Assembly: GCA_030651515.1 (NCBI GenBank)
Contig: JAUSEO010000026.1
Span: 1-44,768, forward strand
DNA from: an archaeon
Lineage (GTDB): Archaea > Iainarchaeota > Iainarchaeia > Iainarchaeales > GW2011-AR10
Direction of reading: 5' to 3'
DNA: 44,768 nucleotides
Position numbers and translations under genes: made by a program. Under the pieces are notes generated by a model that saw only the letters and a list, made by a program, of their open reading frames with translations, did no database searches and was not told the DNA's origin. Of the stretch, positions 10,521-40,787 are shown one piece after another; position 1 is the stretch's first letter, and every line of letters starts with the position of its first letter.

Positions 10521-10544
10521 TTCAGCCAAACTGTTGAACAAAAA

Positions 10545-10560
10545 TCAACCAATTGGTTGA
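10545..10560. promoter_or_regulatory. Perfect 16-bp palindrome TCAACCAATTGGTTGA upstream of cassette copy 1 (operator or attachment-like site)
   Basis: Read directly. A degenerate counterpart, TCAACCCAATAGTTGA, lies at 29499-29514 upstream of cassette copy 2. Confidence 0.5.
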
Positions 10561-10576
10561 GATGAGTTCAACCATA

Positions 10577-10586
10577 GATATATAAA
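10577..10586 (+). promoter_or_regulatory. TATA-box candidate for cassette copy 1
   Basis: gatatataaa lies about 40 nt upstream of the ATG at 10625, with GGAG at 10613-10616 between them. The homologous gtatttaaac sits upstream of copy 2. Confidence 0.45.
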
Positions 10587-10624
10587 TCACCTAAATGCTA
10601 AAGATGATAGTAACGGAGATTTCA

Positions 10625-11293
10625 ATGAAAAAAATAATTCCAAAACTTTTACTCGCATTTTTGTTTTTAGCAGTTACACCAACGGTTTTTGGAGCCAGTG
10701 ACTGCAATCAACACGAGGAAGGGACACACAACTGGGTACCTTATTGGGGAGGGTTACAGTTTCTAGAGAGATACGATGATTATATTATAACCTACCAAAA
10801 TTTTGCTTGGAACCAAAGGAATTTCAATAATATGAAAAATAGATATATAGATGGGAATGTAGACTACATGTACGAAATTAGAAGGCCGGGAGATGCTAAT
10901 AATAGCCCCCAAAAAGATTATTGGGATTATTGGAAGAGAACCAGGCCAGATTACTGTGAAGGCGTTTATTTTACCAATCTCCCAAACCCCATTGAAGATA
11001 ATTGGAGTGAGGAAGCAGATTGGTGGATGACTGAGTGTGATAACCTTTTTCCTTTCACACATGACCCGGATGATGAGGAATTTGAGATTAAAAGCCTAGA
11101 TGAGCACAACGAACTAGAACCTTACAAAGAATATTATGTAACTACAAAATTTTGGCGGGATCCCGAAGACAGAGGAAAAAGAATGGAAATAAGATCTGAA
11201 TCAGAGTATTGCGGAATTTTTAGTTTTCCCTTCTGTACGGATACAATTGGTTTTCACTGGTGCACAATGACCATAGACCAAATAAGAGCGTGA
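10625..11293 (+). CDS. Secreted Cys-rich protein, unknown family (P1)
   Basis: Signal peptide MKKIIPKLLLAFLFLAVTPTVFGA. Six Cys are conserved with the paralog at 30588-31211. Trp/acidic-rich. No family recognised. Confidence 0.7.
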   Translation: MKKIIPKLLLAFLFLAVTPTVFGASDCNQHEEGTHNWVPYWGGLQFLERYDDYIITYQNFAWNQRNFNNMKNRYIDGNVDYMYEIRRPGDANNSPQKDYWDYWKRTRPDYCEGVYFTNLPNPIEDNWSEEADWWMTECDNLFPFTHDPDDEEFEIKSLDEHNELEPYKEYYVTTKFWRDPEDRGKRMEIRSESEYCGIFSFPFCTDTIGFHWCTMTIDQIRA

Positions 11294-11302
11294 AGTGAAA
11301 CA

Positions 11303-12073
11303 ATGAATCTAAAACTTTTAGTAACCGGCATGATTTTTTTAATAGTAGTAATATCCATTGCCGTGGGAATCAGCACAAAAAATAATATACAACCCAATAC
11401 TAGTGGCGCCAAATTAAATGGCTACCCAGCAGAAAATTGGGAAAAAATAGAAATTTTCAGAGCGCCGAGCGGCGAGATATTCATTTCAAGTTTTCCTCTT
11501 ATTTCAAATGAAAACGAAATTCAGGCATTCAAACAAAAGTCAATAGAGAGACTAAATGGCCTACAAGAAGGGGTTGTTTACCACAATGTTGTCGTAACAT
11601 TTTCAAAAGAACTGAATGAAGAAGAAGTAAATGAACTCTCTGAAATTATCAACATTCTGAGATTAAAATACATAGCTGACCCAGAAGGAACAGGAACAAT
11701 TGGTTTTCCACTAGAGGAAGAAGAAAGAGAATATCTGGCCAATCTGGAACAGGCAATCAAAACTAAAATGTCTGACTGTTCTAATTTAGATAAAAAGCTT
11801 TCACCATTAGAAACAAGTGAAAGAGAAATCAAGAAAAAGGAACTGCTAGAACAGTGTGATGCATACAAAGACTTCAAACTCGTTAAGGGGTTTGTTGCGG
11901 CAGATGTAGTAGATTCAAAAGAAAATCTTCTTGAACTAGCAAACCATCAAAACGTGTTATTTGTTGATGTAGGCCCAATCGAACTATTAGAAAGGTACCC
12001 AAATGCATTCATTAAACCAATAAAAGATGGGTGGTATGAATATTCAAAAATAGTAAATAATGAAATTTCTTAA
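11303..12073 (+). CDS. N-terminally membrane-anchored protein, unknown family (P2)
   Basis: Single N-terminal TM (LLVTGMIFLIVVISIAVGI). Paralog at 31219-31974 shares VTFSKELNEEE, PEGTG and VDVGP-ELL blocks. Confidence 0.7.
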   Translation: MNLKLLVTGMIFLIVVISIAVGISTKNNIQPNTSGAKLNGYPAENWEKIEIFRAPSGEIFISSFPLISNENEIQAFKQKSIERLNGLQEGVVYHNVVVTFSKELNEEEVNELSEIINILRLKYIADPEGTGTIGFPLEEEEREYLANLEQAIKTKMSDCSNLDKKLSPLETSEREIKKKELLEQCDAYKDFKLVKGFVAADVVDSKENLLELANHQNVLFVDVGPIELLERYPNAFIKPIKDGWYEYSKIVNNEIS

Positions 12074-12117
12074 AGAAAAGACTGATTTTTTATTAACAAA
12101 CTAACAAAAGGTTATTG

Positions 12118-13110
12118 ATGCCTCAAAAATATGTTGATTCAAGCAAATTTATACAACAAATTGTCTTTTTTTTAAAGCCCGACAAGTGGAAATTAGCACT
12201 ATTTTCATTGGCAATTTTGCTCGGGATAATTACAAGTATGATAAGGCATGAAAACGTATTAGCCTCCTCCATGATTTTTTTTCTGCCGATTTTTATTTTT
12301 ATATTCATATCGCCGGTCTCAGCTATCATTGGAGTGATTGACCCCAAACTCAAAATCTTTGGAAATTTTTACGGGCTTATTGAAGCTAATATCATTTTTT
12401 CCATCGCCTTGTTGTTTATTTATTTCTATATTCTGGCTTGTTTTATTGTTTTTTCGTTTAAGTATTTAAGAAAAAAGTTTGATATAAAATTAATTGCCAT
12501 TTTATTGTTTCTTTTTTTTGTCTTGTCAATTTCATTTCTTGGATGGTTAGACTTGATTATCAGCCCAACTTTGGAAACAACAGTACTTTTAATAAAAAAA
12601 GTCGGAGTTTCTTTATTTTCTTCCTACATTTTTACCCTTATAGTTTTAAGTGGCCTAATTTTGCTGAAAAAATTTTTAACAATGCCATTAATTAAAAAAC
12701 TAGCAATAGTTTTATCAATTATTTTGGTTTATTTAGCAATTTTCTACCCTGCTTTCCAAGGAAACATTATTCCAAAAACATTGGACATAGAAGAACGCAA
12801 CCTTGCACTTTACGCCATAGAAGAGACAGAAAGCCAGCTTGACATACAAGGCGACGGGATACTACAGTATGAAGTTGTTAGCTTCAAAAGACCGGTAGAA
12901 CACATCGTAGTACACAACAATTTTCCAGGGAGTAACAATGTATGGCAGGAGACATGCGATGTGGAAATAAAAATGAAAACCAGGACATTTTTTGGACAGC
13001 CGTTCTATGAAATAATAGTTTACCTCAATTCCACAGAAAACTTCAATTACAATTACTGTGACTTGGAAATACCAAACGAGTGCGACTTTGACCCAAACTG
13101 CAAACCCTGA
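12118..13110 (+). CDS. Polytopic membrane protein with a Cys-containing C-terminal domain, unknown family (P3)
   Basis: About 7 hydrophobic segments, then a roughly 110-aa soluble tail (..ETCDVEIKMK..NYCDLEIPNECDFDPNCKP). A+T-rich. Confidence 0.6.
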   Translation: MPQKYVDSSKFIQQIVFFLKPDKWKLALFSLAILLGIITSMIRHENVLASSMIFFLPIFIFIFISPVSAIIGVIDPKLKIFGNFYGLIEANIIFSIALLFIYFYILACFIVFSFKYLRKKFDIKLIAILLFLFFVLSISFLGWLDLIISPTLETTVLLIKKVGVSLFSSYIFTLIVLSGLILLKKFLTMPLIKKLAIVLSIILVYLAIFYPAFQGNIIPKTLDIEERNLALYAIEETESQLDIQGDGILQYEVVSFKRPVEHIVVHNNFPGSNNVWQETCDVEIKMKTRTFFGQPFYEIIVYLNSTENFNYNYCDLEIPNECDFDPNCKP

Positions 13111-13311: not shown

Positions 13312-14169
13312 ATGTATAGCAAACCCCAAAATAACGTAAAATATGGGCATTTGCTATTAGGTTTTAAGTTTAACATATATAGGCAAATAGGCAATTTGTT
13401 TGGGCAGTGGTATTTTTTGTCTCTTGAGGAACTGAACGCGTTTTTGGCAGAGTTTGGCTTGACGGAGTATGAAACGCGCGTGCTTTCCACGCTTTTCGGG
13501 TTTGGCGAAACACATGCACCTGAAATAAGCCGGCACGCACAGGTCCCAAAAACAAGGGTTTACGACGTTTTGGAAAGGCTCACAAAAAAAGGCCTTTTGA
13601 TAGAGGTTTCAGGACGCCCAAAAAAATACAAGGCGCTTGAACCGTCAAAGGCACTTGACATGCTGCTTGAGGAATCCAAGGCACGGCTTAAAAACCTTGA
13701 AGAAAGAGCCATGCTGATTAAAGCAGGGCTTGATTTCCCGGCTGAAAAAAAAGGCGCTGAACGCGTTTTGAAAGTCAGGGAAAAAAACGATTTTTACAAG
13801 ATTTTGGTCCAGGAAATTGATTCTGCAAAAAAAAGCGTGACCGGTTTCAGTTCAGGGGTTGTATCAAATCCGCTTTTGGCTGACGCAGTGAAAAAAGCTG
13901 GTGCGCGAAACGTTGAAGTAAAAATAATTTCTGCCATAAACAAAATTGCAGACAAGGCAGGGCTTGAAGAAGGCGGCGTGGAAATCCGCATGGCTGACCA
14001 CAACCTCGACGCTTTTGTCGTTGATGGAAAAAAAGTTGTTTTGTCATTATCCGATTTGTCAGCGGAAAAAACAGGGTACCATTTCACCATCTGGCCCGAA
14101 AACGAGCACCTCGCACAAGCCCTTGGCCACTATTTCAACAAAGTCTGGGAAAAAGCCAGGACAGCCTGA
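13312..14169 (+). CDS. TrmB-family transcriptional regulator
   Basis: FGLTEYETRVLSTLFGFGETHAPEISRHAQVPKTRVYDVLERLTKKGLLIEV is a TrmB-type wHTH. The true start may be the in-frame TTG at 13417, which has a TATA-like acatatatagg at about 13373-13383. Confidence 0.75.
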   Translation: MYSKPQNNVKYGHLLLGFKFNIYRQIGNLFGQWYFLSLEELNAFLAEFGLTEYETRVLSTLFGFGETHAPEISRHAQVPKTRVYDVLERLTKKGLLIEVSGRPKKYKALEPSKALDMLLEESKARLKNLEERAMLIKAGLDFPAEKKGAERVLKVREKNDFYKILVQEIDSAKKSVTGFSSGVVSNPLLADAVKKAGARNVEVKIISAINKIADKAGLEEGGVEIRMADHNLDAFVVDGKKVVLSLSDLSAEKTGYHFTIWPENEHLAQALGHYFNKVWEKARTA

Positions 14170-19805: not shown

Positions 19806-20004
19806 GTTTCAGTTTTAGTTCCCTTATTTTTTGTTTTCCGTTTTTTGTCTTTGCAAGCCTTTGATAAAAAAGATTAGCGTTTTCAATCTGCGCATTGATG
19901 AATGGAGTGAGCTGGCGCTGACAGTTCCTCATGTCTTGCTTGCACTTCAACGCCCACCATTCAATGTGGTCAAAAAGTTTTTTCACCTTCATTTCAGCCG
20001 CCAA
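19795..20004 (-). CDS. Small ORF (69 aa) coupled to the upstream nucleotidyltransferase-fold gene
   Basis: Its start overlaps the stop region of the 19994-20563 gene by 11 nt. It fills the otherwise empty 19806-19993 gap. No recognisable motif. Confidence 0.3.
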   Translation of the reverse strand: MAAEMKVKKLFDHIEWWALKCKQDMRNCQRQLTPFINAQIENANLFYQRLAKTKNGKQKIRELKLKPIG

Positions 20005-20563
20005 GCCTGTATTTTTTTACGAGTTTTTTCAGTTCACCGATTTTTTTCTCATCAAGTTTTTCAGAGTAAATTATCCTCAAATGCCTTCCATCTTCAAGGT
20101 CCTTTGGGCTTTTCAGCAGTTCTTCTTTGAAAGCAATGTTTGTTTCAATGCTTGAAAAATAAAATGGAAGATTGGTTAAAGGGAGTTTTACTCTTTCAAC
20201 TATTTGTTTTTCGTCAAGCGCGTCTTTTGCAAACTTTACCCCCATTTCCGGGATAAACTGGTTCTTTCTTGTATAACGCAAGGCCATGTTTTCACTCAGG
20301 TAATCGTTAAACAAATCCAAGGGGTTTGCCCCCTGAATGCATTCAAAACCAGATTTTAAGAGGTCATTGTGTAGTTGTTTGAAGTTTTCAAAAAAAAGCT
20401 TTTCAATAATAAGGTCAATGTCTTCTGTGCCCCTGCTCCGCCCATGGAAAATAGCGACAAACCCAGAGACAATAACATATTTTACTTTGTTTTTGTCCAC
20501 GACTTGTATGAAGTCTTCGACAAACTTGTTCAGGATATTTTTGTCTTTTATCTGCCTTTCCAT
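19994..20563 (-). CDS. Nucleotidyltransferase-fold protein (MNT/AbiEii-like)
   Basis: VSGFVAIFHGRSRGTEDIDLII matches the G[SR]-x(n)-D-x-D minimal NTase motif. One of the few - strand genes, in an A+T-rich stretch. Confidence 0.55.
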   Translation of the reverse strand: MERQIKDKNILNKFVEDFIQVVDKNKVKYVIVSGFVAIFHGRSRGTEDIDLIIEKLFFENFKQLHNDLLKSGFECIQGANPLDLFNDYLSENMALRYTRKNQFIPEMGVKFAKDALDEKQIVERVKLPLTNLPFYFSSIETNIAFKEELLKSPKDLEDGRHLRIIYSEKLDEKKIGELKKLVKKYRLGG

Positions 20564-20668
20564 TAAATAGAATGGCTTTAAAACTGTTTAAATTGGTTTT
20601 GGAAATGAGCTTTGACATAAACAAAAAGGTACAAATACAGGTAACTGCTTAGTAATTAATGTGGAAAA

Positions 20669-21202
20669 ATGCGGAAAGTTGCCTTGATTTTTTTACTGGG
20701 GCTTGCCTTGAATGTTTTTGCAGGTCCGCTTGGCCAAGTGGATATAAGGGTTGAAACTTTCAAGCAATACCCTGGTGAAGAGTCAAGTGTTTTTTACCAG
20801 GACAATGAAATATTCACCGAGATTACAGTTATTAACAATTCTTCCACTAGCCTTGAACTGGAGGTTAATTATGAACTTGACTCTGCGGAGGGGGAATTTG
20901 GGGCTATTCAAAGAAGCAAGCAATTAAGTGTGCCTGCAAAGGAATCACGTTCTTTTTCCGACTTGTTCCAGGTGCCGATGGGAGAGGGGATTGCTTCAGG
21001 GACGTTTATAGTAAAAGCCAGTGCAAAAGAGGAAAACCAAAACCTAGGCCAGGGGGGTTCTGTGACCGGGGACGCGTTTATAACCATTTTTTCAGGAAAC
21101 GGGAATGGCGAGGCATTAAATGTGGATGAAACCGGTTTTTTTCTTCTGCCAATAATCGGGTTTATGGCTCTTTTTTTACTCAAAAAAAAGGATTCTTTTT
21201 GA
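20669..21202 (+). CDS. Secreted beta-rich protein with a C-terminal TM anchor
   Basis: Signal MRKVALIFLLGLALNVFAG. C-terminal FFLLPIIGFMALFLLKKK. Confidence 0.6.
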   Translation: MRKVALIFLLGLALNVFAGPLGQVDIRVETFKQYPGEESSVFYQDNEIFTEITVINNSSTSLELEVNYELDSAEGEFGAIQRSKQLSVPAKESRSFSDLFQVPMGEGIASGTFIVKASAKEENQNLGQGGSVTGDAFITIFSGNGNGEALNVDETGFFLLPIIGFMALFLLKKKDSF

Positions 21203-29496: not shown

Positions 29497-29526
29497 AATC
29501 AACCCAATAGTTGAATACAATTCAAC

Positions 29527-30536
29527 TGTAATGTCAACCTTTTAACGTAACATTCTTCTTTTTTGAAGTCTTTTTGTTGTGCAAGGAGGGTGTAGTGGGT
29601 TTATCCGATTTTTTTGAGTGGGGGAAGAAGTCCCCCACTACTTTAGATTTTATATGAGACTATTGTCAGAAGAACGTCGTTTTTTGATAAAAGCTTTACG
29701 GAAAAAAGTTCCAGTGAACATGATAGCTAAAGTTTTTGGAGTGAACCGTAAAACCGTCTGGTATTGGGGTAAACAAGATGCGAGGACTGGTTTAATTGAT
29801 AAACCGAGGAATAAAGCCAGAAAAATCACTCTTCAGGTTGAATTGACTATTTTGTTTTTGAGAGTCATGTTCAAGTGGGGAACTGCAAGAATTCAACAGG
29901 GTCTTTTTGATTTACCGGATTTCATGAAAAAGGAAATGGAAAATCCGGTACAACGTGTAAAATTGTCCAGACAGTCAATTAATGAGGTTTTACGAAAACA
30001 TCACTTAAATGGTTTTACCAGAGAACAAAAGGCTTGGAAATTTTTCAGGGCTTCCCAACCTAATGAATTATGGCAGTTAGACCTAAAAGGGCCGTTTACA
30101 GTTCAAGGACAAAAATGGTACTTCCTAATTTGTATAGACGATTACAGCCGTTACATTGTTACCGCTGACCAGTTTGACCACTGTCCCAACATTCAGGAAA
30201 TACTGGGTTCCATTCAACCATCCATTAACCAGTTTCACCCAAAAAATATTCTGACGGACAATAACCCATTCAAACAGGACTGGGCAGAAAAATTAAAACA
30301 ACAAGGAATAAACGCTTTATTCGCACACCCTTATTATCCTCAAGACAAGGGAAAAGTCGAACGTTGCATCCGAAACCTTGCAGAAGAATTCGTCAACCTC
30401 TTACTCAAATTTCCTCATTGGTTAAACGGAAAACTCAAACAATGGGTAGAATGGTACAATAACCACCGTTACCACCGAGGAATTAAAGGATATCCTGTAA
30501 CCCTGTTTTATGGGGAGTTAAAGACTTGACTTTACA
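29527..30536 (+). mobile_element. Insertion sequence (rve/DDE, IS481-like), 1010 bp
   Basis: IRL is TGTAATGTCAACCTTTTAAC (29527-29546). The reverse complement of IRR is TGTAAAGTCAAGTCTTTAAC (30517-30536). They match at 16 of 20 positions with TG..CA termini. A 5-bp direct repeat TCAAC flanks the element (29522-29526 and 30537-30541). Single transposase ORF. Confidence 0.8.
29654..30529 (+). CDS. DDE transposase/integrase (rve domain) with N-terminal HTH
   Basis: HTH is NMIAKVFGVNRKTVWYW. Catalytic residues are WQLDLKG (D), ILTDNNPF (D) and PQDKGKVERC (E). The stop lies inside IRR. Confidence 0.85.
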   Translation: MRLLSEERRFLIKALRKKVPVNMIAKVFGVNRKTVWYWGKQDARTGLIDKPRNKARKITLQVELTILFLRVMFKWGTARIQQGLFDLPDFMKKEMENPVQRVKLSRQSINEVLRKHHLNGFTREQKAWKFFRASQPNELWQLDLKGPFTVQGQKWYFLICIDDYSRYIVTADQFDHCPNIQEILGSIQPSINQFHPKNILTDNNPFKQDWAEKLKQQGINALFAHPYYPQDKGKVERCIRNLAEEFVNLLLKFPHWLNGKLKQWVEWYNNHRYHRGIKGYPVTLFYGELKT

Positions 30537-30587
30537 TCAACCAAACGTATTTAAACCACAAAGGAAGAAAATACTAAATGGCCTTAG

Positions 30588-31211
30588 ATGAAAAAATTGC
30601 TTGCAAAAGTTGCGCTTGTTTTAGGGGTTCTATTTATTTCTGGCACAGCCTTTGGCGCTAAAGCTTGTACTGAACATGAAGAAGGGACTCACGACTGGGT
30701 GCCGGATTGGGATGGAAATGTGAGTTTTATATATCGTGAGGATTCAACTATTACTCATCAAACTTTTTCTTGGGTTCAAAACAATTTGGATAATTTTATG
30801 AGCAAAAATGCATATTACCAATATGAACTCAAGCGACCAGATAAAGAAGAGTACTGGGACTATTGGAAACTGATAATCCCGTTTGTTTGTATACGCAAGG
30901 GCTATTTTACTAATCTCCCAAACCCGATTGAAGACCAATGGTCGGAAGAAACGGACCTGTGGTTTATTTTAGGATGCGGAAGACCTTCATGGGGGTTTGA
31001 CGAAGAATTTGAAATTAAAAGCCTAGACCCAAATGCACTGACAGCTGACGTTACATATTTTGTAGATGCAAACTTTTGGCGCGATACTGAAGACAGGGGA
31101 AAACCAATGACTTTGCAGTCTGAATCCGAATTTTGTGGCATTAATTATTTTTGTAATCGTGGCCAGGTATTCCACTGGTGTGAAATGACAGAGCAGAGGA
31201 TAACTGGGTGA
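30588..31211 (+). CDS. Secreted Cys-rich protein, paralog of P1 (P1')
   Basis: Signal MKKLLAKVALVLGVLFISGTAFGA. Shares C-x-HEEGTH-WVP, YWDYWK, YFTNLPNPIED-WSEE, EEFEIKSLD, FWRD-EDRGK, SESE-CGI and FHWC-MT with 10625-11293. Confidence 0.7.
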   Translation: MKKLLAKVALVLGVLFISGTAFGAKACTEHEEGTHDWVPDWDGNVSFIYREDSTITHQTFSWVQNNLDNFMSKNAYYQYELKRPDKEEYWDYWKLIIPFVCIRKGYFTNLPNPIEDQWSEETDLWFILGCGRPSWGFDEEFEIKSLDPNALTADVTYFVDANFWRDTEDRGKPMTLQSESEFCGINYFCNRGQVFHWCEMTEQRITG

Positions 31212-31218
31212 AACAAAA

Positions 31219-31974
31219 ATGGATCGAAAAATATTGTTGGTCGGAGTCATTTTAAGTATTTTAGTTTCAGTTGGATTTGCTGTTAGCATAGCAACAAAAG
31301 GTGATTTGAGTTTGTTAGGACTAAAAGTACCTGACAAGGAAGAACTCCAGGTAGTCAATGCATTCAAAGAAAATGGCGAAACCATTGAAATAGTTCAGAC
31401 TCCAACTGACCAAATAGCAATTGCAAGCAGGGCAATGCCTTCCACTGAAAGTGAATTACTTGCATTTAAGCAAAAGTCAGTGGAGCGGTTAAATTTGCTT
31501 TCAACTGGAGTCACTTACCAGGCTATAGTTACCTTTTCAAAAGAATTAAACGAAGAAGAACTCAAAGAACTTTCTAAAATAGTATCTATTTATAGGGTAA
31601 AATTTGTTTCTTTCCCCGAAGGCACTGGTGCCGTAGAGTTTCCAGTACCAGAAACATATTTTGAAGAGCTTGAACAAAGAATCAATTCCATGTTTTCTGA
31701 CAAAGGGGATATTTGTTCCAAGGAAGTTTTAGCCACAAAAGGGGAAGCAGCAAAAAAGCAATGTGATTCTTATAAGAATTATAAAGCTCTCAAAGGCTTT
31801 ATTGCAGCCGACACAATAGTTGGTTCCAAAGAACAGTTAATGAATCTTGCAAGAACCGAAAATGTTTTAGTAGTTGACGTTGGGCCTGTCGAACTATTAC
31901 AACAATATCCCGGCGCATTTATTATGCCAACAAAAGACATTTGGTATGAGTACTCAAAAATAACCAATTCATAA
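31219..31974 (+). CDS. N-terminally anchored protein, paralog of P2 (P2')
   Basis: Shares AFKQKS-ERLN, VTFSKELNEEE, PEGTG, LKGF-AAD, NVL-VDVGP-ELL and WYEYSKI with 11303-12073. Confidence 0.7.
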   Translation: MDRKILLVGVILSILVSVGFAVSIATKGDLSLLGLKVPDKEELQVVNAFKENGETIEIVQTPTDQIAIASRAMPSTESELLAFKQKSVERLNLLSTGVTYQAIVTFSKELNEEELKELSKIVSIYRVKFVSFPEGTGAVEFPVPETYFEELEQRINSMFSDKGDICSKEVLATKGEAAKKQCDSYKNYKALKGFIAADTIVGSKEQLMNLARTENVLVVDVGPVELLQQYPGAFIMPTKDIWYEYSKITNS

Positions 31975-32001: not shown

Positions 32002-32991
32002 ATGAAGAAAAAAATCGTCTGCTTAGGCTTGGAGTCAACAGCCCATACCTTTGGGGCGGGAATAGTCGACGAAAAGTGCAATGTCTTAGCCAACGAGAAA
32101 AGCGCGTTTAGGACAGAGAAGGGCGGGATAAAGCCAAGCGAGGCTTTTGACCACCACTGCAAAAACGCGATTGGCGTAATCCGGGGGGCTTTTGAGAAAA
32201 GCGGGCTTTCAATGAAAGACATTGAGGTTGTAGCCTTCTCCCAGGGGCCGGGGCTTGGCCCGTGTTTGCGGACTTCTGCAGTGATAGCGCGCACGCTTGC
32301 ACTTGCCCACAACAAGCCTCTTGTAGGGGTAAACCATGCCCTGGCGCACATTGAAATGGCCAAGAAAAAATGCTCCGCAAAAGACCCTGTCGTGGTCTAC
32401 ACAAGCGGCGGAAACACGCAGATACTCGTGCTTGAGGAAAAGCGGTACCGCGTGCTTGGCGAGACCCTTGACATAGGCGTTGGGAACCTGCTTGACAGTT
32501 TTGGGAGAAGCCTTGGCCTTGGTTTTCCCGCAGGGCCAAAGATTGACGAAATGTATTTTGAGTCAGACAATTACGTTGAACTCCCTTACTCGGTGAAGGG
32601 AATGGACCTGCAGTTCACTGGGCTTTTGACTTCAGCAGAAAAAAAAATCGGGACTGTGCCGGAAAAAGATTTGTCTTACTCACTCATGCACACGGCATTC
32701 TGCATGATTGCAGAAGTCACTGAGCGCGCTCTTGCATTCACTGGCAAAAAAGAAGTTCTTCTCACTGGTGGAGTGGCCTGTTCAAAAGCACTGCAGAAAG
32801 TGCTTGGCGAAATGTGTGAAGCACGCAAAGCAAAGCTGCTTGTCTGCCCGCCTGCATACGCGGTTGACAACGGCGCAATGATTGCCTGGACCGGGTTGAT
32901 TGCCTTCCGCGCGGGAAAGACGACAAAAATTTCTGAATCAAAAACTATTCAGCGTTTTCGGCCGGACAGCGTGGAAATTGCGTGGGGTTAA
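32002..32991 (+). CDS. kae1: tRNA N6-adenosine threonylcarbamoyltransferase Kae1
   Basis: CLGLESTAHTFGAGIV...FSQGPGLGPCLRTSAVIARTLA...VGVNHALAHIE...TGGVACSKAL. Confidence 0.9.
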   Translation: MKKKIVCLGLESTAHTFGAGIVDEKCNVLANEKSAFRTEKGGIKPSEAFDHHCKNAIGVIRGAFEKSGLSMKDIEVVAFSQGPGLGPCLRTSAVIARTLALAHNKPLVGVNHALAHIEMAKKKCSAKDPVVVYTSGGNTQILVLEEKRYRVLGETLDIGVGNLLDSFGRSLGLGFPAGPKIDEMYFESDNYVELPYSVKGMDLQFTGLLTSAEKKIGTVPEKDLSYSLMHTAFCMIAEVTERALAFTGKKEVLLTGGVACSKALQKVLGEMCEARKAKLLVCPPAYAVDNGAMIAWTGLIAFRAGKTTKISESKTIQRFRPDSVEIAWG

Positions 32992-33706: not shown

Positions 33707-34627
33707 TCATTTGTTGTTTAAATTAGTTTCATTCTTTAGTTTATCTAAAACATCGTCAGAAGACATTATTTCAATTGCCCCGAATTCTTGAATAGCCTGT
33801 TTAATTCCTTCGTTTGGCAAAATATGCAATGCTAATGACGGCACAAAAATTGGAACTTTTTGTTTATATGCAGTTTTTGTTTGAACCATAGCACCACCCA
33901 TAGCGCCACTTGCAATATTTATGATTCCATTAGATATGCCTGACGTGATTCTGTTCCTTTGTACGAACGAATAATTTGCACCACCAAAATTTGGCGAATA
34001 TTCGCTAACTAGTAGCCCTCTTTCCTTGATTGTATTTAATAATTTTTTATTTTCTTCAGGGTATAGATTAAAAAAACCCGTTCCCATAATCGAAATAGTT
34101 TTCCCACCAGTTTGCTGTAAGACTGCATTGTGTGCAGCTGTATCGATTCCAAGTGCTCCGCCACTAACAATAACTACCCCCTTTTTTGCTAAATTGCTTG
34201 CAATAACCGATGTCAAATCTAGTGCTTTTTCCGAGGCAGTACGACTTCCAACAATAGCAATTTTATTTTCACTATATAATAGGGATTTGTCACCCCAGAG
34301 GAATAAAAAGATTGGAGGTAAAGGGATGTTTTTCAACTGGCGAGGATAATCTTTATCGAATAAGGTAAGTATTTCGATTTTGTTTTTTTTGCAGTCATGT
34401 ATAGTTTTTAGATAATTTTCGTCAGATGCACTTTTGAGTTTTTCAATCTCTTTTACCATTAAATTAGTAATACCTTTAGTTTTTTCTAAATCTAAATTAG
34501 CAGCATTAAATACTCCGTCAATAGTTTCAAATCTTTGAACTAAATATAAGATTCGTGATGGTCCAAGACCATGAACATTATTTAATTTCATCAATTTTAC
34601 GAGTTGAGAATCAGTAAGTTCAGTCAT
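33707..34627 (-). CDS. dprA: DprA/Smf-like (SLOG/Rossmann) DNA-processing protein
   Basis: IAIVGSRTASEKALD...VIVSGGALGIDTAAHNAVL...ISIMGTGFFNLYPEEN...SEYSP...FVQRNRITSGIS..INIASGAMGGAMVQ. The N-terminus is HhH-like. Confidence 0.8.
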   Translation of the reverse strand: MTELTDSQLVKLMKLNNVHGLGPSRILYLVQRFETIDGVFNAANLDLEKTKGITNLMVKEIEKLKSASDENYLKTIHDCKKNKIEILTLFDKDYPRQLKNIPLPPIFLFLWGDKSLLYSENKIAIVGSRTASEKALDLTSVIASNLAKKGVVIVSGGALGIDTAAHNAVLQQTGGKTISIMGTGFFNLYPEENKKLLNTIKERGLLVSEYSPNFGGANYSFVQRNRITSGISNGIINIASGAMGGAMVQTKTAYKQKVPIFVPSLALHILPNEGIKQAIQEFGAIEIMSSDDVLDKLKNETNLNNK

Positions 34628-35235
34628 TATTTCCCACCCATTTCATTGATGCCTAAACATAATGCTGTAACACTACACGTAGATTTGCTTTTTTTTAACA
34701 ATTTGGCGCATTCGAGTAAATGTATCCCTGTCGTTTTAGTATCATCCAACAGCAAAATGTTTGTTTCTTGCGAATCTAACTTGCGAGTCAGAACCATAGT
34801 ATCTTTGATGCTAGTATATCTATCATATAAACTGGCAGTGTATGAAAATTTTTTAGTCTCTTTTATTCGCTTAATTATGTTTTCATTCTTAAAAGAATTT
34901 TTCTTTGCGAGTTTGACTGCAAGCGGTAATAATGTAGGTGAATATTCATCTATTTTTGAAGAAGGCAATACGATTAAAAGGTCGATTTCTTGAAAACGAT
35001 TGTGTGAAATTATAGCTTGTAATGCGGGTAAAAAATAGTCGGAGAGGTCTTTTGTTTTTGATTCTATAATTTTTTCGGAATACTCATCACTTTTTGTATT
35101 TTTTTTAAAATATTTTCTGGGTGCATGAACTGGCACTTTAAGACCTGGATATAGCCGATACCAGTTAGCAGAGTCTGTTTCCCAGGGATATTTTCTTTGC
35201 GTACCAGTCAAATTAACTTCAATAAAACCCCCCAT
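34627..35235 (-). CDS. Phosphoribosyltransferase-like protein (ComF/ComFC-like, no zinc finger)
   Basis: PRPP-loop-like NILLLDDTKTTGIHLLECAKLL. Its stop TAA overlaps the dprA ATG by 1 nt (TAATG). Confidence 0.65.
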   Translation of the reverse strand: MGGFIEVNLTGTQRKYPWETDSANWYRLYPGLKVPVHAPRKYFKKNTKSDEYSEKIIESKTKDLSDYFLPALQAIISHNRFQEIDLLIVLPSSKIDEYSPTLLPLAVKLAKKNSFKNENIIKRIKETKKFSYTASLYDRYTSIKDTMVLTRKLDSQETNILLLDDTKTTGIHLLECAKLLKKSKSTCSVTALCLGINEMGGK

Positions 35236-35251
35236 CAAATCCCCTTTTTAG

Positions 35252-39566: not shown

Positions 39567-40247
39567 ATGATTTTAGAAGCAAAAACATTCAAAGAGGATT
39601 GCCAAAATGTAAAAACTTTAGCAGATACTTGTTTGTCAATTAAAAAAAACCTGAATTACCCCGTGCAAGATGTAAGAAATCAAACCTTGAACAATATAGA
39701 AAAAATTTCTGACTCTTCTCTGATGATACTTAACCTACTTGATTCTTGGGCAATTGAAAGTCCTAACCAAAAATATGTAATTAGCCGACTAATAGGACTT
39801 GAAGAACCTGATAAGTCTAATGAAGTTGTTAATATGATTAGCAAAATGACAAAACTTGGATTTGTTTTGTTGTCCCAATTTCAAATTGAAAATTGTACAA
39901 GAACACTTGCCAAAAATTTAGGAGCGCATAGCGGACAAAATAAATTTTACAGTGAAGCAAAAAGTCTAATTAATGCACTTAATCTAACGCAAGACAAATT
40001 GGAAATTCTTAATACTACTGCACTTATTAGAAATACATTGCACAATAATAGAGTCCACTATTCTTCGCATGGAACTAAAACAACAGTAATAAAGGAGGCA
40101 AGATATGAGTTCATTATCGGAGAGCATATTAATTGCGCCACTTGGAACCATATAACCCATGCTTTACAACACTCAGTTTATGTTCTAAAAGAAATTTTTC
40201 AGCACCTGCAGTTTAAATATTTTCCTTATTTTACTTATTTAAGGTGA
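39567..40247 (+). CDS. Hypothetical protein (A+T-rich, helical), adjacent to the mazEF-like pair
   Basis: No recognised family. A weak Rx4-6H-like RVHYSSH is present. Confidence 0.5.
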   Translation: MILEAKTFKEDCQNVKTLADTCLSIKKNLNYPVQDVRNQTLNNIEKISDSSLMILNLLDSWAIESPNQKYVISRLIGLEEPDKSNEVVNMISKMTKLGFVLLSQFQIENCTRTLAKNLGAHSGQNKFYSEAKSLINALNLTQDKLEILNTTALIRNTLHNNRVHYSSHGTKTTVIKEARYEFIIGEHINCATWNHITHALQHSVYVLKEIFQHLQFKYFPYFTYLR

Positions 40248-40261
40248 TTTTTGTGTCTAAC

Positions 40262-40456
40262 ATGACCATGGCTATTGAAGATAAAATGCACAAGAAGATG
40301 AGGGCACACCCTGAAGTCAAGTGGACTGAAGTTGCAAGAAAGGCTTTTGAAAAAAAACTGGCAGAACTAGAAACAGTAAAGGACCCCTGGAGGCAATACG
40401 CTTACAAAAGATGGGCCGAAGAAGGAGAGGAAGCTGACGAACTCTTTGAATTTTGA
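40262..40456 (+). CDS. Putative antitoxin (MazE/RHH-like small protein)
   Basis: About 64 aa, acidic C-terminus. The stop overlaps the start of the PemK/MazF-like gene. Confidence 0.5.
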   Translation: MTMAIEDKMHKKMRAHPEVKWTEVARKAFEKKLAELETVKDPWRQYAYKRWAEEGEEADELFEF

Positions 40457-40787
40457 ACCCGGAGACATAGTCGTAGCTGATTTGTTGTTTGCAGAACAAA
40501 TTGGAATAAAAAGAAGGCCTGCACTCGTAATAAGCAATTCAAATTACAACAAAAACTCTGAAGACGTAATCTTGCTGAAAATAACTTCAAGTGCACCCAA
40601 AACAAAGTATGACGTTTTGCTTTCAAACAAAGACCTTAAAAAAGGCAACCTAAAAACAGAAAGCAGCGTAATGGCAGACAATCCTGTAACTACATACAAA
40701 AAAATGATTGAAGCAAAGATTGGAAAAATTTCAGAACAAAAACTAAAAGAAGTAAAGCAGAAATTAAAAGAGCTTTACGAATTATAA
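40446..40787 (+). CDS. mazF: PemK/MazF-family toxin endoribonuclease
   Basis: FEPGDIVVADLLFAEQIGIKRRPALVISNSNYN...VILLKITSS fits the MazF/PemK pattern. TTG start. Confidence 0.7.
   Translation: MNFEPGDIVVADLLFAEQIGIKRRPALVISNSNYNKNSEDVILLKITSSAPKTKYDVLLSNKDLKKGNLKTESSVMADNPVTTYKKMIEAKIGKISEQKLKEVKQKLKELYEL

Follow-up and report, generated by a model that had tools for sequence, protein, structure and literature searches.

The 44,768-nucleotide stretch of DNA analysed here (the window; contig JAUSEO010000026.1 of an archaeal metagenome-assembled genome, MAG, GCA_030651515.1) carries two diverged copies of a gene pair, P1 and P2, which code for a cysteine-rich protein with a signal peptide and a partner with a membrane anchor. 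Judged by sequence, P1 and P2 are two new protein families that lie outside every library searched. They very likely form a functional unit, in the simplest case a physical complex, because they are fused in several proteins, are strictly adjacent elsewhere and diverge together. A location of this putative unit outside the cell or in its envelope is supported by the signal peptide, by the membrane anchor and also by the cysteines and partner domains. To our knowledge, the conserved P1-P2 pairing has not been described before. The genes of the two cassettes are:

10625..11293, + strand: P1a, 222 amino acids (aa), with a signal peptide (predicted cleavage at about FGA/S) and six cysteines; member of a new extracellular domain family
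11303..12073, + strand: P2a, 256 aa, with an N-terminal signal-anchor transmembrane (TM) segment and an alpha/beta ectodomain; the conserved partner of P1
12118..13110, + strand: P3, a polytopic membrane protein on the same strand as P2a, with the lowest GC content of its island
30588..31211, + strand: P1b, 207 aa, paralog of P1a
31219..31974, + strand: P2b, 251 aa, paralog of P2a

All four P1 and P2 open reading frames (ORFs) were present where the earlier note on this DNA had placed them, and its description of the pairs as diverged paralogs was confirmed. P1a and P1b share 46% identity over their full length (E = 5e-60) and P2a and P2b 48% (E = 2e-66), and these were the only strong paralog pairs in an all-against-all BLASTP comparison of the 55 ORFs in the window. 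A third P1/P2 pair, with adjacent locus tags (Q7K34_01070/01075), is found on another, 14.7-kb contig of the same MAG. The same-strand gaps are 9 nt between P1a and P2a, 41 nt between P2a and P3, and 7 nt between P1b and P2b, indicating operon-like packing. No P3-like gene follows P2b, where kae1 begins at 32002.

The pairing had been claimed to be real and not a chance adjacency, and three lines of evidence bear this out: neighbourhood elsewhere, fusion and co-divergence. Outside this genome, seven P1 loci with a separate downstream gene were retrieved, and in 7/7 a P2 homolog is the next gene or lies within two genes, so that the suggested check on neighbourhoods in other genomes came out in favour of the pair. 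The P2 homologs, with their E-values in local hmmsearch, are:

L005: P2 homolog, E = 6.6e-26
L008: P2 homolog, E = 2e-28
L009-L014: P2 homolog (plus a truncated second copy), E = 1e-23
L015: P2 homolog, E = 1e-30
L016: P2 homolog, E = 1e-23
L017/L018: P2 homolog, E = 7e-27
L019/L020: P2 homolog, E = 2e-46

On a Logan contig (L001), the C-terminus of P1 is likewise followed by P2 11 nt later. Three independent proteins are P1-then-P2 fusions in the order of the gene pair, namely P0012 (P2-profile E = 4.7e-19), P0008 (1.8e-14) and an ORF of L004 (3.5e-20), the last being one relative found by a motif scan of Joint Genome Institute (JGI) metagenome contigs. In total, there are 11 neighbouring loci (L001, the third copy in the MAG and both copies in the window included) and 3 fusions, with 0 counter-examples. 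The pairwise identity matrices of P1 and P2 are correlated over 11 pairs (r = 0.79, Mantel p about 2e-4; r = 0.58 without the intra-MAG pairs), and therefore the two families diverge as a unit.

Two of the outside loci have arrangements of their own. At L009 (11546-12828), downstream of the P1-P2 pair come a lipoprotein-like gene (175 aa), a truncated second P2 (154 aa) and then a DUF6069 membrane protein, which looks like a local duplication. At L017 (10001-11667; JGI 3300041077), the P1 gene codes for no signal peptide, with a stop codon 3 codons before its ATG, and the TM segment is missing from P2; this subfamily keeps the P1 cysteines and a downstream 4-TM protein, and its neighbours include DpnII-MboI, NACHT/NB-ARC and large VWA proteins.

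That no family could be recognised for P1, P2 or P3 agrees with our searches of Pfam, NCBIfam, PADLOC and PHROGs, in which none of the three had a match, and the proposed profile searches against Pfam and PDB likewise placed neither P1 nor P2 in a known family. The libraries were recent (newest Pfam models from 2025, NCBIfam of June 2026, a 2026 copy of the PDB sequences). Profiles of 3, 4, 10 and 40 sequences found nothing credible among the PDB sequences, the 40-sequence P1 profile being empty even at E<=10, and the PADLOC anti-phage defence models gave no match at E<=1 for P1a, P1b, P2a, P2b or P3. What is new here is the protein families; as a system, they may prove to be of a known kind, for example a toxin or an enzyme.

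A word-indexed database of 5.8 billion proteins returned only the P1 and P2 proteins themselves, the third MAG pair and the Logan contig L001, and a word-indexed search with the 40-sequence P1 profile recovered only 7 proteins. In the GTDB species-representative genomes, one motif scan for each of P1 and P2 gave no relative, a negative that is limited to those motifs; a motif scan of the IMG/VR viral contigs and a tblastn search of the PLSDB plasmids gave none either. A full HMMER scan of 1.84 billion representative proteins yielded 53 P1-domain proteins at E<=1e-3 and 38 at E<=1e-10, with one of the 53 (P0051) looking like a repeat-driven false positive. A restriction of the family to archaea did not hold up. 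The L009 contig carries bacterial-type L21/L27/L31 genes and an NAD-type DNA ligase, and L003, L009 and L019 adjoin LuxR-, OmpR- or MalT-type regulators; by these gene contexts, the module is not restricted to archaea.

The reading we favour, tentatively and with confidence a little short of even, is a membrane-tethered extracellular heterodimer, in which P2 would hold P1 at the surface and a cluster of carboxylates on P1 would be the working site. P1 and P2 would be the two subunits of one extracellular module. Their short operon would also encode an accessory membrane protein of the polytopic kind, which in copy 1 is P3. P1 would be exported through Sec and fold as a compact, beta-rich, acidic domain with three disulfides, one of which probably staples its N- and C-termini together. 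P2 would stay membrane-bound through its N-terminal anchor, with its alpha/beta ectodomain exposed, and would bind P1 and retain it at the cell surface. The working site would comprise E84, D101, E129/E130, E151/E152 and E194, with R87, and would bind (probably through a cation) or cleave a surface polymer, most likely a carbohydrate, since the P1 domain is appended elsewhere to modules that bind carbohydrates, lectins among them. Horizontal transfer would have brought the cassette into this archaeon, where its number would have risen to three. The analysis establishes the two families, their linkage, fusions and co-divergence, the extracellular setting and the IS insertion described below; physical binding of P1 to P2, the way the disulfides pair, and both ligand and activity belong to what we infer in this model. 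The roles put forward in the earlier note were a surface or host-interaction module, or a secreted effector with a membrane partner of the toxin/immunity kind; the part that stands is the extracellular or envelope pair, while the P1-P2 fusions argue against a simple toxin/immunity pair.

The properties of P1 itself agree with its earlier description. Hydropathy shows one N-terminal hydrophobic segment in each of P1a and P1b, consistent with a signal peptide ending in FGA, and the conserved sequence blocks reported for P1 were found as quoted. The six positionally conserved cysteines (C27, C111, C138, C196, C204 and C213) are invariant in the three MAG paralogs. Mature P1 is acidic (pI 4.4), as is the P2 ectodomain, with pI values of 4.4-4.8 for the two. 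One block proved less general than supposed: C-x-HEEGTH is confined to the three MAG paralogs, and distant homologs begin at a W-x-P motif. HEEGTH was also considered as a zincin motif and rejected; its spacing is H-E-x-x-x-H and not HExxH, and the rest of the family is without it. Across the P1 family, the N-terminal cysteine co-occurs with the second C-terminal ('WC.MT') cysteine (table 11/6/1/12, with three rows classified by hand; Fisher p = 0.002), and this paired presence and absence suggests a disulfide that would staple the two termini.

The P1 domain (about 175 aa) occurs in two kinds of setting. Small members of 120-230 aa include several with a signal peptide, a few that are leaderless and some fragments, and the domain stands alone in P0010, P0011, P0016, P0059 and the window copies. 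Larger members, of 250-985 aa, usually have the domain at their extreme C-terminus (it is C-terminal in P0009, P0015, P0020, P0029, P0041, P0043, P0044, P0047 and P0056). In the 20 multidomain members scanned, the Pfam domains N-terminal to P1 are CBM96, CARDB, PKD, PA14, Golvesin_C, RicinB and SBBP beta-propeller repeats, with E-values of 9.7e-14 for CBM96, 9e-51 for RicinB_lectin_2 and 8.5e-15 for PA14. Separately, P0020, P0028, P0042-P0044, P0047, P0048, P0052 and P0056 have in common a module of about 110 aa that directly precedes the P1 domain. Its motifs are 'FEPDD.P..A..L..GE.Q...C...DEDW' and 'SSR(V/I).W.P', and by eye it is like a pre-peptidase C-terminal (PPC) domain; Pfam finds no domain in this region in the seven proteins scanned (all except P0028 and P0048).

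A C-terminal P1 behind N-terminal binding domains of widely differing type, among them RicinB as in AB toxins, would also be expected of an antagonism cassette akin to a polymorphic toxin or bacteriocin. P1 would then be an envelope-acting toxin, secreted alone or delivered by its N-terminal lectin or adhesion domains, and P2 and/or P3 would shield the producing cell on the outer side of its membrane. The small partner gene that always follows P1, the high divergence of neighbouring small membrane proteins of the polytopic kind (a tendency of immunity proteins) and the three paralogous cassettes in this one genome, in low-GC islands with one beside an insertion sequence (IS), all fit such a cassette. 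Fusion of P1 and P2 in three proteins, however, is unusual for a toxin and its immunity protein, the PKD or MopE-like extracellular domains that P2 may carry are atypical of immunity proteins, and P2 co-diverges smoothly with P1. Furthermore, RHS, LXG, FHA, HINT and other known trafficking or pre-toxin domains are absent from the 20 multidomain members scanned, PADLOC gave no match, and the variable part is the N-terminus, with P1 constant; the converse, a constant N-terminus with varying C-termini, was not seen. We regard antagonism of this kind as somewhat unlikely. A broader version, in which the module would be an unrecognised contact-dependent surface weapon or host-interaction system of archaea and bacteria, with an envelope-attacking P1 held by P2 and self-protection by the membrane protein or P2, we take to be unlikely; if true, the three-copy amplification would be a major determinant of this archaeon's dealings with its neighbours or host.

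The same architectures could be read as cohesin-dockerin-like anchoring, with P1 as a C-terminal docking tag that fixes diverse secreted proteins to P2 as their anchored receptor. P1 is indeed C-terminal in heterogeneous surface proteins, and P2 is anchored and always encoded beside P1. But many members, including all three MAG copies, consist of P1 alone, there is one P2 gene per P1 gene and not one anchor for many cargoes, and the P1-P2 fusions would dock onto themselves. Neither cohesin nor dockerin domains were recognised by Pfam in P1, in P2 or in the long homologs, and this reading is highly improbable.

Conservation within P1 includes acidic residues and cysteines. In P1a numbering, the residues conserved family-wide are W37, P39, W62, E84, R87, D101, L119, P120, E129, E130, C138, E151, E152, Y170, E194, C196 and C204, with invariant Glu residues and a near-invariant Arg. 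In P2, the single N-terminal TM segment that had been predicted was seen by hydropathy in both P2a and P2b, and homologs usually have one too. The ectodomain is about 190 aa. In L016 and L015, the P2 homologs have PKD or MopE-like domains as well, and these confirm that P2 lies outside the cell. The claim of two conserved P2 cysteines was upheld in part: one is invariant in the four close P2 sequences and the other is not, and both sit in a helical, lineage-specific insert that the wider P2 family lacks.

Within a domain of about 175 aa, invariant Glu residues and a near-invariant Arg would also suit a secreted enzyme, and on this reading P1 would be a hydrolase or lyase that depends on carboxylates (a glycoside hydrolase, polysaccharide lyase or glutamic peptidase of a new kind, for example), with P2 as a chaperone or propeptide-like inhibitor acting in trans or from the C-terminus. 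Many secreted carbohydrate-active enzymes and peptidases carry CBM96, RicinB, PA14, PKD or CARDB as P1 does, the low-confidence P2 model has the order beta-alpha-beta-beta, insert, beta-alpha-beta, and an attached prodomain would be in keeping with the fusions. The conserved acidic residues could instead have a structural role as Ca2+ ligands, though, and no glycoside hydrolase (GH), polysaccharide lyase (PL), peptidase or Inhibitor_I9 match was obtained even at E<=10, nor any match among the PDB sequences. The resemblance of P2 to Inhibitor_I9 has no statistical support, and an internal duplication in P2 was considered but not supported (hhalign probability 4%). We consider the enzyme-inhibitor reading improbable.

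The third gene of cassette 1 is less firmly tied to the pair. P3 is polytopic with a cysteine-rich tail, as described earlier: several TM helices lie within residues 25-219, and the acidic C-terminal tail has 4 cysteines in the last 106 residues of the protein. Its assignment to the cassette can be kept in so far as small polytopic membrane proteins recur beside P1/P2 in L008, L009 (the DUF6069 member), L015, L017 and apparently L005, but P3 has no detectable homology to them. In L016, the gene in the third position has a single TM segment. Only L008_g3 and L017_g3, among the downstream membrane proteins, are homologous to each other (E about 1e-12). Because P3 matches none of the others, it is a positional analogue only, and its membership in the module is provisional.

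Several observations weigh against the tethered heterodimer that we favour. Searches of Pfam, NCBIfam and the PDB sequences revealed no enzyme, lectin or anchor family to which the proteins are homologous, so the domain neighbours are all that points to glycan binding or cleavage. AlphaFold2 models from alignments of 3-4 sequences were unusable (pLDDT 38.9 for P1 and 46.8 for P2), and a Foldseek search of these low-confidence models against PDB, with no match at E<=1e-3 and TM-scores of at most 0.24, was uninformative. The L017/P0013 subfamily, with its leaderless P1 and a P2 lacking the TM segment, is something a strictly Sec-exported model fails to explain; it fits neither the tethered heterodimer nor its rivals. 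The accessory role given to P3 is weakened by its lack of detected homology to the membrane proteins of the other loci and by the absence of a P3-like gene from copy 2. Finally, the stand-alone P1 proteins carry no cargo, and P1 is thus not merely a docking tag.

Both cassettes had been described as richer in A+T than their neighbours, which holds: the cassettes have a GC content of 0.33-0.40 (P1a 0.38, P2a 0.34 and P3 0.33 in cassette 1; P1b 0.40 and P2b 0.365 in cassette 2), compared with 0.44-0.51 in the flanking genes, which were identified as rps2, a TrmB-like gene, sua5 and kae1 (0.44-0.48 around cassette 1; 0.47 for sua5 and 0.51 for kae1). Based on the low GC and the fact that one cassette has been struck by an IS, the cassettes look horizontally acquired. 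Cassette 2 and the IS are flanked by sua5 (TsaC-type, TIGR00057; 28879-29496) and kae1 (TsaD family; 32002-32991), two genes of one pathway, that of the tRNA modification t6A. A position between two genes of this pathway fits insertion, and sua5 and kae1 were probably adjacent before cassette 2 arrived. No direct repeats that would mark a recent insertion were found flanking cassette 1. Cassette 2 had been placed directly after sua5, which needs correction, as a 1,010-bp IS481-like element intervenes. The features upstream of the two cassettes are:

10533..10572, no strand: imperfect palindrome of 40 nt in the cassette 1 leader, 81% complementary; candidate operator
10574..10587, + strand: TATA-like box ATAGATATATAAAT, about 38 nt before the P1a ATG, read from the sequence
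29497..29526, + strand: distal half of the copy-2 leader, which starts directly behind the sua5 stop and is separated from P1b by the IS
29527..30536, + strand: IS481-like element of 1,010 bp, with a DDE (rve) transposase gene at 29618-30529
30537..30587, + strand: proximal half of the copy-2 leader, with TATA-like box GTATTTAAAC; aligns with the copy-1 leader at 10568-10624

The IS ends in inverted repeats of roughly 20 bp, TGTAATGTCAACCTTTTAAC and TGTAAAGTCAAGTCTTTAAC, and is bounded by a 5-bp target duplication, TCAAC (29522-29526 and 30537-30541). The best model for its transposase is NF033577 (3e-38, 132 bits, which is below the 224-bit cutoff), followed by IS3 (2e-25) and rve (3e-10), and the element is best called IS481-like. 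When the IS is excised in silico, the copy-2 leader starts at the sua5 stop and aligns with that of copy 1; the alignment takes in both the TATA-like box and a degenerate form of the palindrome (TCAACCCAATAGTTGA, 29499-29514). By this alignment, the duplicated unit includes the regulatory leader.

Within the 40-nt palindrome of cassette 1 lies a perfect palindromic 16-mer, TCAACCAATTGGTTGA, at 10545-10560. The window holds this one exact match and two matches with 3 mismatches, at 29499-29514 (the same position in the copy-2 leader) and at 30435-30450 (inside the IS), and 0/100 shuffles reached 3 matches. The palindrome present in both leaders may be an operator, and as the leaders are aligned here the IS now parts it from the copy-2 promoter. 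A GGAG lies at 10613-10616, upstream of the P1a ATG. The position of the TATA-like box leads us to favour the ATG at 10625 as the putative start of P1a over the ATG at 10595, which would give a longer ORF; this choice we infer only. A TrmB-family regulator gene (13312-14169) is located just downstream of cassette 1; its homology to a regulator-like gene upstream in L008 was not supported.

The window contains other stretches of low GC. An island at 33707-35238 (- strand, about 0.33) carries a DprA/DNA_processg_A gene (1.3e-56) and an adjacent 203-aa ORF without a Pfam match. Another, at 39567-40787 (0.31-0.33), has a 226-aa ORF without a Pfam match followed by a PemK/MazF-type toxin (3.6e-18), beside which no antitoxin gene is obvious. 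At 19994-21202, a low-GC stretch includes a 189-aa ORF (- strand) without a Pfam match and a 177-aa secreted ORF that ends in a hydrophobic segment and then KKKDSF, which could be a C-terminal sorting signal.

P1 and P2 are tied together about as firmly as comparative evidence allows, yet no curated library or solved structure covers them. Three copies in what look like horizontally acquired islands suggest an accessory surface function relevant to the lifestyle of this archaeon, such as attachment, polymer feeding or antagonism. The P1 domain of about 175 aa, with its invariant carboxylate cluster, and the partner ectodomain of about 190 aa make a defined target for structure prediction and biochemistry, and seed alignments are supplied for the two new domain families.

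Parts of this module resemble known systems. The order of elements in P2 and a 'GF.A....L..L....V..VD.GP'-like pattern recall, without statistical support, the ferredoxin-like prodomains of subtilases (Inhibitor_I9). Unlike these, P2 is C-terminal to P1 or acts in trans and has an extra N-terminal beta-beta-alpha unit, and PF05922 matches 0/10 P2 members even at E<=10. As in cohesin-dockerin systems, there is a secreted domain with a membrane-anchored partner, and the secreted domain is C-terminal in diverse extracellular proteins; the differences are the lack of any sequence relation, the one-to-one gene pairing and the frequency of P1 without cargo. Carbohydrate-active enzymes and peptidases with appended carbohydrate-binding modules or lectins share the plan of a signal peptide, then CBM96, RicinB, PA14, PKD or CARDB, and then a C-terminal domain with invariant carboxylates, which here is P1. 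P1 nevertheless matches no GH, PL, carbohydrate esterase or peptidase family, and its obligatory second protein, P2, is lacking in typical carbohydrate-active enzymes.

The general pattern of polymorphic toxin systems has been described by Zhang et al. 2012 (PMC3482391). P1 is like these toxins in being a conserved C-terminal domain on variable N-terminal binding or delivery regions, with stand-alone cassette versions, although this pattern is not specific to toxins. A small partner gene directly downstream and a variable small membrane protein nearby are found both here and in polymorphic toxin and bacteriocin-immunity cassettes, and the several copies per genome, in IS-associated islands of atypical GC, are likewise shared with polymorphic toxin cassettes. 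In contrast to those systems, the P1/P2 module has no known toxin, trafficking or immunity domain, and P2 is as large as P1, extracellular, sometimes multi-domain and, in three proteins, fused to P1.

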